This document shows positions 13,383-18,620 of a stretch of 64,000 nucleotides of DNA, piece by piece. The stretch is taken from contig JAQBVF010000009.1 in NCBI GenBank assembly GCA_027623675.1, positions 42,113 through 106,112 on the forward strand. Direction: 5' to 3'. The notes below the pieces were generated by a model. That model did no database searches. It saw only the letters and a program-made list of their open reading frames with translations, and was not told the origin of the DNA. The position numbers and the translations under genes were made by a program. Positions within the stretch are counted from its first letter, which is position 1. Each line of letters opens with the position of its first letter. The stretch comes from Chloroflexota bacterium (GTDB lineage Bacteria > Chloroflexota > Dehalococcoidia > Lucifugimonadales > UBA3495).

Positions 13383-14900
13383 ATGTCTTCGACCGACCTG
13401 GACCATGCCGGCGGCACCTCCCTGACCCGCAGCCCAAACTACAAGTATTGGGTCTTTGGGGCCTTGGCCATCGGCACGTTCGCATCGGTGGTGGACCACG
13501 GCAGCGTCAACGTGGCCCTGCCGACCATCGCCACCAGATTCCAGACCGACCTGCCGACCATCCAATGGGTGGTCATAACCTACGCCCTCACCATCAGCGC
13601 GCTGCTGCTGCCCATGGGGCGTCTCTCGGACCTTATCGGCCGCCGTAAGGTGTACATCGCAGGAATGGCGGTGTTGGCCATCGGAGCGGCATTGGCCGGG
13701 CTGTCACCCAACCTGGAGATGCTGTTCCCGGCCCGGGTGCTGCAGGGCGTGGGCGCCGCCATGACCCAGGGCACGGGCATGGCCATCATCACATCAGCAT
13801 TCCCGCCCAACGAGAAAGGCCGGGCCATCGGACTGATCATGACCATGGTGGGGGTGGGCGCGGTTGCCGGTCCGGCCATCGGGGGGCTGGCCGTCGACGC
13901 CTTTGGCTGGCGCGCGGTGTTCTTCCTGACCATCCCCTTGGAGGTCATCGGCGTGGCCGTCACTCTGTGGGTGATGCGCGGCTGGGCGGACGTTCGGGAA
14001 TCCGGGAGAGCCCGGTTCGACTGGTTGGGAGCCACACTGTCGGCGGGGATATTGGTGGCCTTGCTGATCACCATGACCACCGGCAACAAGACCGGCTGGT
14101 TTTCGCCGGTCATCCTGGCCGCCTTCGCCGGGTCCGCCGCCATGCTCGCCACCTTCATATGGTGGGAATTGCACACCACCGCCCCAATGTTGGACCTGCG
14201 GCTATTCAAGGGCGTAACTTTCTCGCTGGGCGTGTCGGCGGCTTTCCTGACGTTCCTGGGGTCGTCGGCGGTCCTATTCCTGATGCCCTTCTATCTGCAG
14301 AACGTGTTGGGCTACAGCGCCAAGACCGCCGGCTTTGTCGTGGTGCCCGGAGCGTTATGCATGGCGGTGCTGGGGTCGGTCAGCGGGGTGCTCTCCGACC
14401 GGTTCGGGTGGCGTCCATTCACGGTGGGTGGCCTGGCGTCTTCGGCCACCGGACTTATCATCCTGTCGCGGGTCACCGAGACATCGCCGCTATGGATGGT
14501 GGTGCCGGCGCTGATGCTGATGAACAGCGGCATGGGAACCTTCTATTCGCCCAACTCCAGTTCGGTGATGAACTCGGTCAGTCCCGACAAGTACGGCGTG
14601 GTGTCCGGGTTCTTGAACCTGGTGCGAAACGCCGCCAACGTCACCAGCATCGCCGTCGCCACCATCATCGTCACCGCCACCATGGGTTCATTGGGCTTCG
14701 AGCCAAGCTTGGAAGCGGTCCGGGGCGGCAGCGAGGGGGTTGGCCACGCATTTACCGTGGGACTCCGCTACGCCTTCTTGGTGATGATGGGGATGGTTCT
14801 CTCAGCCATGACCATCTCCGCCCTGCAACGGGGACGCTCCGGAGAGGAGGCCGCTGACCCGGCGGCCGACGCCCTGGGAAGGTCCCAGGCCGACGATTAA
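13383..14900 (+). CDS. MFS efflux transporter, DHA2/EmrB-QacA family
   Basis: VNVALPTI, GRLSDLIGRR, RVLQGVG, GPAIGG, WRAVF, PMLDLRLF; about 14 TM segments. Confidence 0.92.
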   Translation: MSSTDLDHAGGTSLTRSPNYKYWVFGALAIGTFASVVDHGSVNVALPTIATRFQTDLPTIQWVVITYALTISALLLPMGRLSDLIGRRKVYIAGMAVLAIGAALAGLSPNLEMLFPARVLQGVGAAMTQGTGMAIITSAFPPNEKGRAIGLIMTMVGVGAVAGPAIGGLAVDAFGWRAVFFLTIPLEVIGVAVTLWVMRGWADVRESGRARFDWLGATLSAGILVALLITMTTGNKTGWFSPVILAAFAGSAAMLATFIWWELHTTAPMLDLRLFKGVTFSLGVSAAFLTFLGSSAVLFLMPFYLQNVLGYSAKTAGFVVVPGALCMAVLGSVSGVLSDRFGWRPFTVGGLASSATGLIILSRVTETSPLWMVVPALMLMNSGMGTFYSPNSSSVMNSVSPDKYGVVSGFLNLVRNAANVTSIAVATIIVTATMGSLGFEPSLEAVRGGSEGVGHAFTVGLRYAFLVMMGMVLSAMTISALQRGRSGEEAADPAADALGRSQADD

Positions 14901-14916
14901 CCGGCTGACAGTCAGC

Positions 14917-15252
14917 CTATAGAGGACTTTGTCCCAGCAATCCCGCGAACCGCAGGCCCCACAAGACTCCAGCCAGTCCCGTGGACAGTATCAACGTGAC
15001 GGTCGCCCGGTTCTTCCACGCCGACCCCCACCAGCTGCCATGAGACTGCGCCAGCCACCAGCCCCGCGCCAACATGAGCACGGTTAAAGCCAAGAAAGGC
15101 CAGGTCATCACCCGCAACGCGGGCGCCAAGGCCAACCCGGCCGACGTTCCCCCCAGAACACCGAGCAGGCCCGGGACCACTCATCACCAAGGAAGCGGCA
15201 ACAGTCCACTGAGCAGGCTTACGAACGGCTTTTCCAACGCAAATAGTTTCAT
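14917..15252 (-). CDS. merT: MerT-like mercuric transporter with tandem selenocysteines (U23-U24)
   Basis: ATG at 15252; MKLFALEKPFVSLLSGLLPLPW-TGA-TGA(15181-15186)-VVPGLLGVLGG...ALRVMTWPFLALTVLMLARGWWL...; 111 aa with about 3 TM segments; the two TGAs sit where MerT has Cys-Cys followed by xxP; directly downstream of merA. Confidence 0.75.
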
Positions 15253-15391
15253 TGTTTCCCCAACTCTCTCGTCAGATATCTGCCACGCACTACGGCTGCT
15301 CCGGGTGAGTAAACTCAAGGGCAGCGGTGGAACGGCCAGTCAGATCAGATTTTCCCAAGGCCCGCTGTCTGAAACTCAAGCGCAGGGTCAC

Positions 15392-16828
15392 CTACTCGAC
15401 GCAGCAACTCATCTGAGACACATCCCGCGTGAAGGCTTGCGCCGCTCGCTTTATACCCTCGCTCAGGGTCGGAAATACGTGGACGGTATCGATTATGTCG
15501 TCGATGGTCAGGCTGAATTTCACCGCCATAGTGGCTTCGTGAATCAGGTCCGCGGCATGGGGCGCGACGATGTGAACGCCAAGCACCTTGGAGTTACTTG
15601 GATCGATGACCATCTTGAAAACGCCACGGTCATCCTTGGTGGCCTCTGCCTTTGGGACCGCGTCCATGTAGATGGTGCGGCAAGCGCAGGCTTTGGTCCT
15701 GCGCATCAGCTCCTCTTCAGTGATGCCAACCGACCCCACCTCAGGGTCCGTGAAAACGGCATGGGGCACTTCGTCATAGTTGATGCTCCTACGCGCGGAA
15801 GTCAGCGCATTGTCCGCGGCCAACGCCCCTTCTTTGGCCGCGACCGTCTCCAACGCCATCTTTCCGACACAGTCGCCGGCGGCGAAGACGTCCGGGTTAT
15901 CGGTCTGGTAATACTCGTCGACCTGGATGAAACCGTTTCCGTTGGCTTTCACACCGGCTTTCTCCAGCTGTAACGCGCCGGTATTGGCCTGGATGCCCGC
16001 GGCCAGCAGCAATTGGTCCGCCTCCAGGTCGGTTGCCGTTGTAACAAGACTTCGGTTCCGTTGGACCCCGCTGCCGCCCCGGACCGTGACGATCTTCCTG
16101 CCGTTCCGTTCAGCCACCTTGTCCACCGTTACACCCACGTGAAACTCGATCCCCTCGTTCTCCAGGTTGCGTTGTAGTTCGGCGGCTACCTCCGGCTCCT
16201 CACGGGGCAGAATTCGGTCCATGGCCTCCACCACGGTTACCTTCGTGCCAAAGCGAGCGAACATCTGGGCGAATTCCAATCCCAAGGGCCCGCCGCCAAT
16301 AACGATCATTGATTCAGGCAGTTCTTGAAGCGCGAGCGCCGAGACGTTGTTCAGCCAGCGAACTTGGTCGATGCCGTCGATCGGCAGAACCCTAGTGGAA
16401 GACCCGGTGGCGATGATTATCTTCTCCGCTTCGTAGGTCTGACCGCCGGCTTCCACGGCATTCGGCCCAACGAAACTGGCCACAGCCTCTAGCAGGGTAA
16501 CCGTATCCAGGCCATCCAGAACGTTGCGGTAATTCCTCTGCCGCAAAGCGCCCACAAGCTCATCCTTTTCTTGGATGGCGGTCTTAAAATCGAAATCGGG
16601 GCGGCGCCCATTGGAGATAGAGTTGAAATTTGAGTGGGAGCTGTAAAAAAGGTCATTGCCCACGCTGAGCAGGTGTTTACTGGGAACACAGCCAACGTTG
16701 ACGCAGGTGCCGCCCAGGGGCAGGCCGCTGTTGATCATGAGCGCGCTCTTGCCAAGATCCGCCGCTTTGGTCGCCGCTGCGAAGGCCGCCGCTCCGCCTC
16801 CGATGATTATCAGGTCAAGCTTATCCAT
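15392..16828 (-). CDS. merA: Mercuric reductase, catalytic core only (no NmerA domain)
   Basis: GGGAAA FAD motif, [13 protein letters not shown] redox pair, HVFPTLSE, C-terminal [11 protein letters not shown] vicinal Cys pair. Confidence 0.93.
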
Positions 16829-17035: not shown

Positions 17036-17560
17036 TCACAGCGTCCGTTCAATCTCGGTCTTCAAAACGTCGTACGACGTAGCGCCGCCGTCACGGTAGG
17101 AGACGAGTCCATTTCGATCCAGGATTATGGTCGTGCCCAGGCTCGTCACTCCGAACTCCTTGACCAACCGGCCGCCGGTATCGTTTGCCCAGGTCACATC
17201 TTCAGCCCCCTTGCTATGCCAGTAATCGCGCCATTCCTCCACGGAGACCCAGGCGGCGGTATTGATGGCCAGAACCTGGACTCCCTGGGACTGAAATTCC
17301 CGTTGCGCCCGCCCTAAGGCTGGAGCCTCCAGCCCGCAGGTGGGTCAACCGGGAAACGAGAAGTAAAGGACCACGGTTTTACCCAGGTAGTCGTCCATCG
17401 CCAAGGAGACTGCTGGAACAGCTCCGCCGGGTCCGTCGGCGGCCGGAGGGCCGGAATCGTTCGCCCCTGAGACGGCCGTGTTGCCTCCGCAGCCGGCCAG
17501 CGCGGCGGTCAATGCCAACATGATCAGAAAAGCGAGCGCCCTGGGGTAGGTTGATCTCAA
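17036..17560 (-). CDS. TlpA/ResA-like thioredoxin-fold lipoprotein, selenoprotein (U72-P-T-C)
   Basis: ORFs 17345-17560 and 17036-17242 share one frame joined by TGA at 17345-17347: ...GKTVVLYFSFPG-U-PTCGLEAPALGRAQREFQSQGVQVLAIN...FGVTSLGTTIILDRNG; lipobox LAGC; 174 aa. Confidence 0.88.
17318..17334 (-). other. SECIS-like hairpin for the TGA at 17345
   Basis: GGCTGGAG-G-CTCCAGCC inverted repeat starting 10 nt after the UGA. Confidence 0.65.
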
Positions 17561-17575: not shown

Positions 17576-17740
17576 TCAACTTGGAATATGGTGGTCAAGC
17601 GAAGCGGTCGATCCTGGTACCGGGTCTGGTGTTTCGGGTGGCCCGCTTGGGGACCGGCGGAACACCATGGCGCCCAGCCCGATCATGGCCGGGATCAAGA
17701 TACAGCAGATAACCGGAAATGCGGCCAGGAAAGCTCCCAC
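17576..17740 (-). CDS. Small single-TM membrane protein with a Cys-Cys motif (MerF/MerT TM1-like)
   Basis: GTG start: MGAFLAAFPVICCILIPAMIGLGAMVFRRSPSGPPETPDPVPGSTASLDHHIPS* (54 aa); fills the gap within the operon; an alternative start ATG 17773 needs read-through of TGA 17759-17761. Confidence 0.6.
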   Translation of the reverse strand: MGAFLAAFPVICCILIPAMIGLGAMVFRRSPSGPPETPDPVPGSTASLDHHIPS

Positions 17741-17828: not shown

Positions 17829-18065
17829 CTATTCAGCCAGCAATTTTTCGAAGCGGGCGCGGTCAAATCCCACCACGACCTCGCCGTCGATCACGGTAAC
17901 CGGGGTGGTCAACACACCCAGCTTCATCAACTCGTCCATTGCGGACTTGTCGTTCATGACATCCCGTTCCACAAAAGGAACATCCCGTTGCAAAAGATAA
18001 TCTTTTGCCATCTCACAGAAGTGTCAACCGTCGGGTTGGGTGTAAACGAATATCTCGCGTGTCAT
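17829..18065 (-). CDS. Glutaredoxin/NrdH-like selenoprotein (U14-H-F-C)
   Basis: AAGGAG RBS, ATG at 18065: MTREIFVYTQPDG-U(TGA 18024-18026)-HFCEMAKDYLLQRDVPFVERDV...TTPVTVIDGEVVVGFD; 78 aa. Confidence 0.9.
17990..18008 (-). other. SECIS-like hairpin for the TGA at 18024
   Basis: GCAAAAGA-TTA-TCTTTTGC stem starting 15 nt after the UGA. Confidence 0.55.
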
Positions 18066-18115: not shown

Positions 18116-18559
18116 CTACCGAGGACGTTTGACGGCTGGGGCGGTCCGACGGTGTGCGACGTCGCTCTGTTCGATTATCGAGCAGATCTCCCCTCCCTCG
18201 GTCTTGCAGTCGACCAGGCCGATCGAGTGCTCTCTTAGCTCGACCAGGTCGCCTTTGAGGGCTTTCAGGTCTTCTATTGATGCCTCAACATCCGATATCT
18301 TTTGGTCCAACAGGTCGCGGACGTGGATGCACGTCGCTTCTTTCGCGTCATGCAATCGAAAGATTCCCCGAATCTCATTCAAAGAGAACCCCAATCGCTT
18401 CGCTTTAAGGATGAATTCCAGCCTACTCAACGACTCCCCATCGTACGAACGGTAGCCCCCAGTTGTCCTTGGGGGCTCCGGCATCAGGCCTTCGGCCTCA
18501 TAGAACCTGATGGTCTTGGTGTTCGTGCCGGTGGCGCGGGCCAATTCGCCAATCTTCAC
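18116..18559 (-). CDS. merR: MerR-family heavy-metal-responsive regulator
   Basis: MKIGELA...TIRFYEAEGL...GGYRSY, LGFSLNEI; three Cys (ATCIHV, VDCKT, EICSII) in the MerR/CadR/PbrR arrangement; first gene of the merA operon. Confidence 0.88.
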   Translation of the reverse strand: MKIGELARATGTNTKTIRFYEAEGLMPEPPRTTGGYRSYDGESLSRLEFILKAKRLGFSLNEIRGIFRLHDAKEATCIHVRDLLDQKISDVEASIEDLKALKGDLVELREHSIGLVDCKTEGGEICSIIEQSDVAHRRTAPAVKRPR

Positions 18560-18588: not shown

Positions 18589-18620
18589 ATTCTAAACCTT
18601 CCAGTATACTGGAATGTCAA
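18589..18620 (-). promoter_or_regulatory. MerR-type promoter/operator: TTGACA-20bp-TAGAAT with perfect dyad TTCCAGTATACTGGAA
   Basis: -35 at 18615-18620, -10 at 18589-18594, palindrome at 18599-18614 inside the elongated spacer. Confidence 0.9.

Follow-up and report, generated by a model that had tools for sequence, protein, structure and literature searches.

We analysed a stretch of 64,000 nucleotides (hereafter the window) from contig JAQBVF010000009.1 of a Chloroflexota bacterium belonging to the Dehalococcoidia. On the minus strand of the window, at 15252..14917, lies a gene whose reading frame contains two consecutive TGA codons. We call it the UU gene, after its translation with TGA read as selenocysteine (Sec, U), which is that of a membrane protein with two adjacent Sec residues. 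The gene has 111 sense codons and a TAG stop, running from an ATG at 15252-15250, preceded by a purine-rich GGGG(A) stretch, to the TAG at 14919-14917. The TGA TGA pair occupies codons 23 and 24 (15186-15181, minus strand), and the predicted Sec-Sec would lie in the first hydrophobic helix. The surrounding DNA reads ...CTT CCT TGG TGA TGA GTG GTC CCG GGC..., and the corresponding protein motif is LLPLPW-U-U-VVPGLLG. A first-pass annotation of the window, made from the letters of the DNA, had proposed a MerT-like mercury transporter at this position, with a vicinal di-selenocysteine site in place of the Cys-Cys of MerT. Its description of two tandem UGAs at codons 23 and 24 of a 111-codon open reading frame (ORF), with the context just quoted, matches the minus strand exactly. 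Its statement that the ORF has no other Cys is borne out as well, as translation of the whole frame shows no Cys codon elsewhere in the 111 codons. The annotated form of the gene is an 87-codon ORF that starts at the GTG directly after the UGAs.

It is evident that the gene is conserved together with its UGA pair. When 61 related genomes, counting the window's own, were searched in six frames, the UU gene was found in 20 of them; among the 28 matches listed, 17 have exactly two in-frame TGA codons and no other stop. Full-length matches among the relatives span residues 1-111, and the translations of 16 intact copies share the motif PLPW-UU-(V/I)xPG. A sample of the class (401 genomes, again including the window's own) yielded three further matches, all with at least two in-frame TGA codons. 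In a scan of species-representative genomes, PW-TGA-TGA is kept in every one of the 39 loci found, all of which are titled Dehalococcoidia, SAR202 cluster or Chloroflexota metagenome-assembled genomes. The string TGATGA with open frames on both sides is not rare by itself, being present at 256 sites in the genome. The pair in the UU gene stands above chance because it is conserved among relatives.

These observations bear on the idea that the UU gene is a decaying pseudogene, or that its TGA pair is an assembly error. Degenerate copies of the gene, which could be taken as a sign of decay, are present in L022, L027, L032, L033 and L044. They have extra stops or frameshifts, and some of them are second copies in a genome; in the L022 copy, P-stop-L-U stands in place of P-W-U-U. 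Against decay, the 16 intact copies in relatives and all 39 loci have exactly TGA TGA and an open frame before and after it, and the pattern of synonymous changes described below shows purifying selection. As for an error, the first-pass annotation had suggested a check of the raw reads, and contigs from two DNA runs of one study (depths 9 and 52), from which the window's DNA may itself derive, show no difference from the window over 14800-15500. The two assemblies are thus identical at the UU gene. Decay or misassembly is hardly credible as an explanation of the pair.

The same region could instead hold two genes, a 22-codon upstream ORF closed by a double stop and an 87-residue protein that starts from the GTG after it. 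Of 41 distinct sequences, 22 have this GTG, as does the window, and most database entries are 87 amino acids long. In the other 19 sequences, however, the codon is ATC, GTC, GTA, GTT, ATT or ATA, and a general restart after the UGA pair is ruled out because these sequences lack a usual start codon there. Of 13 loci, 12 have an ATG 22-23 codons before the UGA pair and one has GTG, with a purine-rich stretch ahead of this upstream start, whereas no such stretch precedes the codon after the UGAs. In the codons before the pair, the amino acid is constant while 3-5 synonymous codons are used, as with both Pro and the Leu in LPLPW. The region before the UGAs is therefore translated, since its amino acids are kept while synonymous codons vary. 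A start after the pair would also split the hydrophobic helix, and distant homologs with Cys-Cys at the pair (see below) are continuous through PW-CC-(V/I)xP. We regard the presence of two genes as very unlikely. Homologs that start after the TGAs with no conserved upstream peptide, which the first-pass annotation had named as evidence that would speak against its reading, are not what is seen: the upstream peptide is conserved through synonymous changes and begins with ATG. A single reading frame is conserved, from the upstream peptide through the UGA pair into the protein that follows.

Selenocysteine machinery and Cys-Cys homologs

The genome to which the window belongs contains the set of components by which bacterial selenoprotein synthesis is recognized, namely tRNA-Sec (70.4 bits, anticodon TCA), SelA (554.8 bits), SelB (347.7 bits) and SelD (380.3 bits). 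SelD has an in-frame UGA of its own, in the context HCAG-U-AAK; this selenoprotein gene lies at G000:C3:53424-54344 (L038). SelB scores above the cut-off in 55 of the 61 relatives and is general in the order. The presence of SelB was considered as a discriminator of the genomes that carry the UU gene and was rejected, since nearly the whole order has it.

In principle, a standard tRNA for Trp, Cys or Arg could read the UGAs, or the genetic code could be reassigned. Consistent with such a reading, three database proteins (P0013, P0080 and P0095) are deposited with Trp-Trp at the UGA pair. However, TGA terminates 21 of the 62 long frames in the window, and the code is not reassigned because TGA ends these frames. 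The complete Sec machinery also argues against an ordinary tRNA, as does the UGA of selD at a known Sec/Cys site. The same holds for two further results given below, the alignment of the pair with Cys-Cys rather than Trp-Trp and the conserved structured RNA after the codons. Read-through by an ordinary tRNA is highly improbable.

We then consider the homologs that have Cys at the pair. A profile of 12 full-length UU translations, in which U was written as C, was searched against 1.84 billion representative proteins with a threshold of E ≤0.001. This search gave 36 matches, mostly truncated forms, and 11 of them are full-length proteins of 95-124 residues with the motif (S/A)(L/I)PW-C-C-(I/V/L)xP. 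In hhalign, the UU family aligns with this CC family at 99.5% probability (E 2.1e-22) over 93 columns, with UU placed on CC. P-W-C-C are the sole invariant columns in a joint alignment of 48 sequences. One protein, P0077, is deposited with 'CW' at the pair and could be a Cys-Sec form. The first-pass annotation had proposed that homologs be collected for variants of the pair, and had counted a failure of the TGA pair to align with a Cys pair as a point against its reading. The collection contains UU in 39 of 39 loci and CC in the 11 full-length distant proteins, and the TGA pair aligns with the Cys-Cys of these distant homologs. The conserved frame, the Cys-Cys alignment and the full Sec machinery together support the proposed vicinal di-selenocysteine site as a prediction.

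Conserved hairpins after the UGA pair

The coding sequence after the UGA pair shows unusual constancy at synonymous sites. Among conserved 4- to 6-fold degenerate codons, no more than two synonymous variants are seen in 7 of the 15 that fall in the 24-codon zone following the UGAs, and in 0 of 30 elsewhere (1.4e-4, Fisher's test); the zone was picked after the data were seen. This zone coincides with the place expected for a bacterial selenocysteine insertion sequence (SECIS).

Covariation was assessed in 41 distinct sequences against 500 shuffles, which leave the relatedness of the sequences in. Two hairpins are supported. Hairpin A (15171-15130, minus strand) has an 11-bp stem, made of 4 and 7 bp around a U/U mismatch, and a variable apex. 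It starts 12 nt past the first UGA (UGA1) and 9 nt past the second (UGA2). In hairpin A 92.9% of cells are paired, and the covariation score is 0.215 versus 0.170 in the shuffles, none of the 500 being as high. Its apical loop lies 25-31 nt past UGA2 in 40 of the 41 sequences and mostly has G first. Hairpin B (15126-15108, minus strand) has an 8-bp stem and a G-U-U triloop. In this hairpin 94.8% of cells are paired, its covariation score is likewise reached by 0 of 500 shuffles, and the loop is GUU in 36 of the 41 sequences. One pair of hairpin B, 75-83, joins position 3 of a Pro codon to position 2 of an Arg/Gln codon; it is C-G in 24 sequences, U-A in 12, U-G in 1 and something else in 4. 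Repeated switches at this pair are suggested because the window has C-G and its same-genus relatives have U-A. We consider the covariation of the hairpins to be good but not final evidence.

An earlier alignment of 15 sequences had shown weak covariation, with 40 of 500 shuffles scoring as high. The lower stem GUGAUG/CGUUGC taken from that alignment is superseded, as the set of 41 sequences favours hairpin B with the same bases. The first-pass annotation had seen a small hairpin, CCGGG-CCTG-CTCGG, downstream of the UGAs and had advised a covariation analysis of this region. The small hairpin is not supported, since the two bases of its middle pair do not pair in 23 of the 41 sequences and 431 of the 500 shuffles score as high; the analysis favours the two larger hairpins. 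The 72 nt that follow the UGAs are thus constrained at the RNA level and contain two hairpins with covariation.

Candidate SECIS elements of other genes in the genome provide a standard for these hairpins. The element of selD has an 8-bp stem and a triloop, GUC, which starts 27 nt past the UGA. Two further genes in the window that are predicted to encode selenoproteins, one TlpA-like and one glutaredoxin-like (both described below), also have a hairpin after the UGA. In the TlpA-like gene, the stem is 8 bp long and the triloop, GGC, lies 17 nt past the UGA, with compensatory changes among 9 variants; the stem begins 9 nt past the UGA, the distance at which hairpin A begins past UGA2. The glutaredoxin-like gene has a hairpin with the triloop (G/U)U(A/U) 23 nt past the UGA. 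A crude genome scan for UGA followed by a hairpin returned 77 sites, about 10 of which look by eye like real selenoprotein genes, and these have 7-9 bp stems with G-starting triloops 17-27 nt past the UGA. The likely selenoproteins include three GD-U-GSC paralogs as well as T-U-PPF, TPT-U-PAC, C-R-Y-U, C-x-x-U and U-x-x-C proteins, and their genes are found on the G000 contigs C12, C17, C35, C5, C10, C20, C36 and C43. When the whole genome was scanned for TGATGA with a G-triloop hairpin, 4 sites were found, and only the UU gene is protein-like as judged by eye.

These features are consistent with a mechanism in which SelB with Sec-tRNA(Sec) would decode both UGAs, guided by hairpin B, which has the usual SECIS form of the lineage, by hairpin A or by both. 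The position at which hairpin A begins is that of a normal SECIS. Hairpin A fills 42 nt, and once it is folded the path from the two UGAs to the loop of hairpin B is 23 and 20 nt, so that a folded hairpin A might bring hairpin B to the normal distance. SelB may bind hairpin A alone, hairpin B with hairpin A as a folded spacer, or one hairpin per codon.

The operon and its neighbourhood

The UU gene is the last gene of a putative operon on the minus strand. It is preceded, on the same strand and at a gap of 139 nt, by merA (16828..15392), which encodes a mercury(II) reductase of 478 amino acids (TIGR02053, 537.5 bits against a cut-off of 454.45). This MerA has the redox site CVNVGC and a C-terminal Cys-Cys but no N-terminal HMA domain, and the first-pass annotation was thus right to place the UU gene directly after merA. 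Upstream of merA lies the gene for a TlpA/redoxin-like lipoprotein (17521..17037, minus strand; hereafter tlpA(U)), a predicted selenoprotein with the motif FSFPG-U-PTC (TGA at 17347-17345) and the lipobox LAGC. It matches AhpC-TSA (3.6e-13), Redoxin and ResA-like families, and its start may be a TTG a few codons upstream. A glutaredoxin-like protein of 78 amino acids, also a predicted selenoprotein, is encoded at 18065..17829 (minus strand; hereafter grx(U)) with the motif DG-U-HFC (TGA at 18026-18024); it matches Glutaredoxin (4.4e-14), the YruB family (5.4e-18) and Uxx-star families. Both selenoprotein genes are unannotated.

Between these two, at 17740..17576 on the minus strand, a peptide of 54 codons with a single helix and Cys-Cys (FPVICCILIP) has no family match. 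Its versions in relatives, including L049 and L053, read MSSL..LPIVCCLLIP and begin at an ATG after a stop, and no Sec is needed for them. The Cys-Cys of this peptide lies in a P-x-x-CC-x-x-x-P context, a one-helix echo of helix 1 of the putative transporter.

The first gene of the operon (18559..18116, minus strand) encodes a MerR-family regulator of 147 amino acids with three Cys (MerR_1, MerR-DNA-bind). It scores 118 bits with CadR/PbrR and 104 bits with MerR, both below the cut-off. Just before it, at 18620..18589 on the minus strand, a promoter-like TTGACA and TAGAAT, read by eye, are separated by a 20-nt spacer that contains a perfect 16-nt palindrome, TTCCAGTATACTGGAA (18614-18599). A long spacer is typical of MerR-type promoters, and the arrangement TTGACA-palindrome-TAGAAT looks like a MerR-type operator-promoter. 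A consensus promoter scan that covered spacers of 16-18 nt returned nothing at this site with its 20-nt spacer. The order of transcription is therefore merR, grx(U), the Cys-Cys peptide, tlpA(U), merA and the UU gene, with four predicted Sec in three proteins in total; merP is absent from the operon in the window. The UU gene is followed by a convergent gene for a transporter of the MFS family. An inverted repeat, GGCTGAC-T-GTCAGCC (14900-14935), lies between the stops of these two genes and may be a shared terminator; it has no T run and was not flagged by the scan.

The association of these genes varies among relatives. In L048 and L057, grx(U), merA, the UU gene and tlpA(U) are contiguous in this different order, and their association therefore survives rearrangement. 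Within 4 kb of the UU gene in the 39 loci, merA (at least 63% identity) is found in 7, merR in 11, tlpA(U) in 7 and grx(U) in 5. Other neighbours, from a survey of 43 ORFs picked from 20 of the 39 loci, are HMA-domain P-type ATPases (L062 and L072), an ArsR regulator (L046), a redoxin (L068) and unrelated genes. The linkage to merA that the first-pass annotation had pointed out thus holds for the window, where a true merA lies upstream, and is seen next to the UU gene in a minority of relatives only. Same-genus relatives have merR, grx(U), the Cys-Cys peptide, tlpA(U) and the UU gene without merA. In L049 and L053, tlpA(U) is directly followed by the UU gene, whereas in the window merA lies between them. 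It looks as though merA was gained (or lost) within the genus at the exact spot between tlpA(U) and the UU gene.

A candidate metal transporter and its relation to known systems

The relation of the UU protein to MerT is remote. The protein of the window has no Pfam family match. All 12 UU proteins weakly match the NCBIfam model MerTP (best E 7.8e-4; cut-off 180 bits), and one of the 12 matches NF045683, a MerT/CopZ fusion selenoprotein, at E 0.79. The Cys-Cys homologs come closer, as 9 of the 11 match nearly the whole profile of merT_RC607 (NF033560) with E values of 3.4e-9 to 2.9e-4 and 21-37 bits against a 130-bit cut-off, and several of them also give weak matches to PF02411, to MerTP and to the model for the MerT/CopZ selenoprotein. 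NF033560 gives no match to the UU proteins themselves, and the link between UU and MerT is transitive because it is reached through the Cys-Cys homologs. When the families were compared by hhalign with Tn21 MerT, read from plasmid R100, the pair was placed on the Cys-Cys of MerT every time. With MerC, hhalign found nothing.

Other searches add little to this assignment. No Pfam MerT elsewhere in the genome scored over the cut-off in a six-frame search, and two profile searches of PDB sequences gave chance-level matches only (E at least 0.6). A protein-cluster lookup with a natural Cys-Cys homolog led to 'hypothetical protein' clusters, one of which has MerT on 14% of its members. In the structure models, which are of low confidence, helices are placed at 8-17, 22-36, 47-70 and 77-102. 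The loop between helices 2 and 3 has the conserved motif GW(Y/W)L..SHG..W in the UU family; in MerT, the same loop carries the second Cys pair, on the cytoplasmic side. Taken together, the UU protein would be a remote relative of MerT at best, which resembles helix 1 of MerT and lies outside every curated MerT family. The MerT-like identity given in the first-pass annotation stands, then, in so far as the pair aligns on the MerT Cys-Cys by way of the Cys-Cys homologs; it fails at the level of family assignment, with no Pfam match and NCBIfam scores far below cut-off. Likewise, the search it had outlined, with U written as C against MerT models, yields weak MerTP matches in all 12 members and none at a curated cut-off.

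The explanation that we favour, with a probability of roughly 70%, is that the UGAs are read as Sec and the product is a small membrane protein with about three helices, in which Sec-Sec is the likely Hg(II)- or soft-metal-binding pair of a transporter. A number of observations weigh against it. At the RNA level, the 24-codon zone was chosen post hoc and the shuffle controls retain relatedness, as stated above. The apex of hairpin A is not conserved, and the loop of hairpin B lies 65 nt past UGA1 and 62 nt past UGA2, compared with 17-27 nt for the other SECIS candidates of the genome. In addition, the window's own 85 nt fold only modestly better than shuffles, with a z of -1.64 that is not significant alone. 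At the protein level, there is no direct family match at any curated cut-off. PF02411 matches none of the 12 UU members at E up to 10, where only scattered other matches appear. The hhalign comparison with Tn21 MerT is weak: the CC family reaches 58.7% (E 9.5e-5), the joint profile 44.5% and the UU family by itself 1.9%. The UU protein lacks a second Cys pair, and the structure models from 12 and 48 aligned sequences have mean pLDDT values of 55.9 and 57.9. At the level of gene context, merA is nearby in 7 of the 39 loci, and in 24 of the 39 none of merR, merA, tlpA(U) and grx(U) is nearby. Furthermore, five same-genus genomes with the UU gene, which are 62-91% complete, have no MerA above the cut-off (the best scores 401 against 454 bits).

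The neighbouring genes also raise the possibility that the Sec-Sec protein is a transmembrane redox shuttle, of the kind of CcdA or DsbD, which would pass electrons from the glutaredoxin-like protein inside to the TlpA-like protein outside and would not transport metal. In the CcdA/DsbD layout, a thioredoxin-fold donor in the cytoplasm, a redox-pair membrane protein and an acceptor of TlpA type in the periplasm work together. The UU gene does sit with a cytoplasmic glutaredoxin-like U-x-x-C protein and a TlpA/ResA-like U-x-x-C lipoprotein, and same-genus relatives have these genes without merA. On the other hand, none of the 12 UU members matches a DsbD or CcdA family at E up to 10, and the recurrent weak matches are solely of MerT type. 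The regulator is a metal sensor of the MerR family with three Cys, and merA, HMA P-type ATPases or ArsR lie beside the UU gene in other lineages. Moreover, an adjacent Sec-Sec would be odd as a relay when compared with the two separate Cys of CcdA. A redox shuttle therefore seems unlikely to us, although less so than the alternatives considered for the reading frame itself; as to function it is the chief rival, sustained by the operons that lack merA.

If the UU protein is a metal transporter, Sec-Sec in helix 1 would bind Hg(II) or another soft metal, like the Cys-Cys of MerT, and pass it inward. In the window's genome, Hg(II) would then be handed to the MerA encoded by the upstream gene, under the control of the MerR-type regulator. 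Selenolates bind Hg(II) more tightly than thiolates. It is a matter of speculation whether the TlpA-like lipoprotein on the outside and the glutaredoxin-like protein on the inside, both with U-x-x-C, could act as donor and acceptor; such a role would ease the difficulty that Hg is released less readily from selenolates than from thiolates. A bolder proposal combines a dedicated double signal for adjacent Sec with a hand-over chain for Hg made entirely of selenium. For the signal, each hairpin might load its own SelB with Sec-tRNA, or hairpin A, folded as a spacer, might place a standard SECIS at the entrance of the ribosome in both rounds. The chain would lead from the TlpA-like U-x-x-C protein outside to the di-selenol of the membrane Sec-Sec, then to the glutaredoxin-like U-x-x-C protein inside and finally to MerA. 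This combined proposal is doubtful, and we offer it as a tentative one.

Selenoproteins related to mercury have been described before. The prokaryotic selenoprotein table in the Zhang review (PMC9312934) has entries for a 'putative mercuric transport protein' (pfam02411) and for a U-x-x-U 'putative mercuric reductase'. The GOS survey (PMC2398784) includes MerP and mercuric transport selenoproteins, together with a ferredoxin-thioredoxin reductase that has two non-adjacent Sec. In a preprint by Haft (10.1101/2022.07.06.499078), a small group of MerT-family selenoproteins has a C-U motif, and Sec is given as very rare in transporters. The accessible portions of PMC1976440, PMC1794560 and PMC10778597 contain no mention of adjacent Sec. 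The literature search turned up no description of a bacterial protein with adjacent Sec-Sec; 'UU' is unsearchable as a term, and subscription journals and supplements were outside the scope.

MerT-type transporters with a single Sec beside Cys at the metal site are therefore already known. If our reading is true, Chloroflexota of the ocean and of groundwater would have, fixed across a whole clade, a soft-metal site of a new kind, formed by adjacent Sec-Sec. In the current view, the SelB/SECIS machinery is tuned to a single UGA that lies at a set distance from one hairpin, and the UU gene would be a natural system for asking how it serves two UGAs in a row. Gene callers shorten members of the family to 87 residues or write Trp-Trp at the pair, and for this reason the family is missing from selenoprotein lists and from surveys of mercury-cycling genes in the deep ocean. 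In sum, this is a real, conserved and unannotated gene with predicted adjacent Sec, in all appearance a MerT-type selenoprotein variant with an unusual two-hairpin signal.

With respect to decoding, hairpin B resembles the SECIS candidates of selD, tlpA(U) and grx(U) in its stem, which falls within 7-9 bp, and in its G-starting triloop. The UU gene differs from these genes in having two UGAs in succession and two conserved hairpins, the SECIS-like one being 62-65 nt away. As in the SelB/SECIS decoding of Escherichia coli fdhF, the predicted signal is a hairpin within the coding sequence downstream of the UGA. With respect to the protein, CcdA and DsbD have neighbours of the same kinds, that is, a cytoplasmic thioredoxin-fold protein and an extracytoplasmic TlpA-like one; they carry one Cys in each of two helices, whereas the UU protein has an adjacent pair in one helix and no sequence match to them.

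The closest parallel would be with MerT. Like the MerT of Tn21 and Tn501 (PF02411, NF010314), the UU protein would be a small membrane protein, encoded in the window in a putative operon with merR and merA, with an adjacent chalcogen pair in helix 1 and Pro two residues on. It differs in its predicted Sec-Sec in place of Cys-Cys, its lack of a second Cys pair, the lack of merP and its motif PW-UU-VxPG. Among named families, the Gram-positive MerT (NF033560) comes nearest to the Cys-Cys homologs, although their scores are far below its cut-off. The known selenoproteins of the MerT family have Sec at the metal-binding pair of a MerT-type transporter, as is predicted for the UU protein. They carry one Sec (CU), whereas the UU family, which is a different sequence family, would carry two adjacent Sec, the pair being fixed in all 39 loci.

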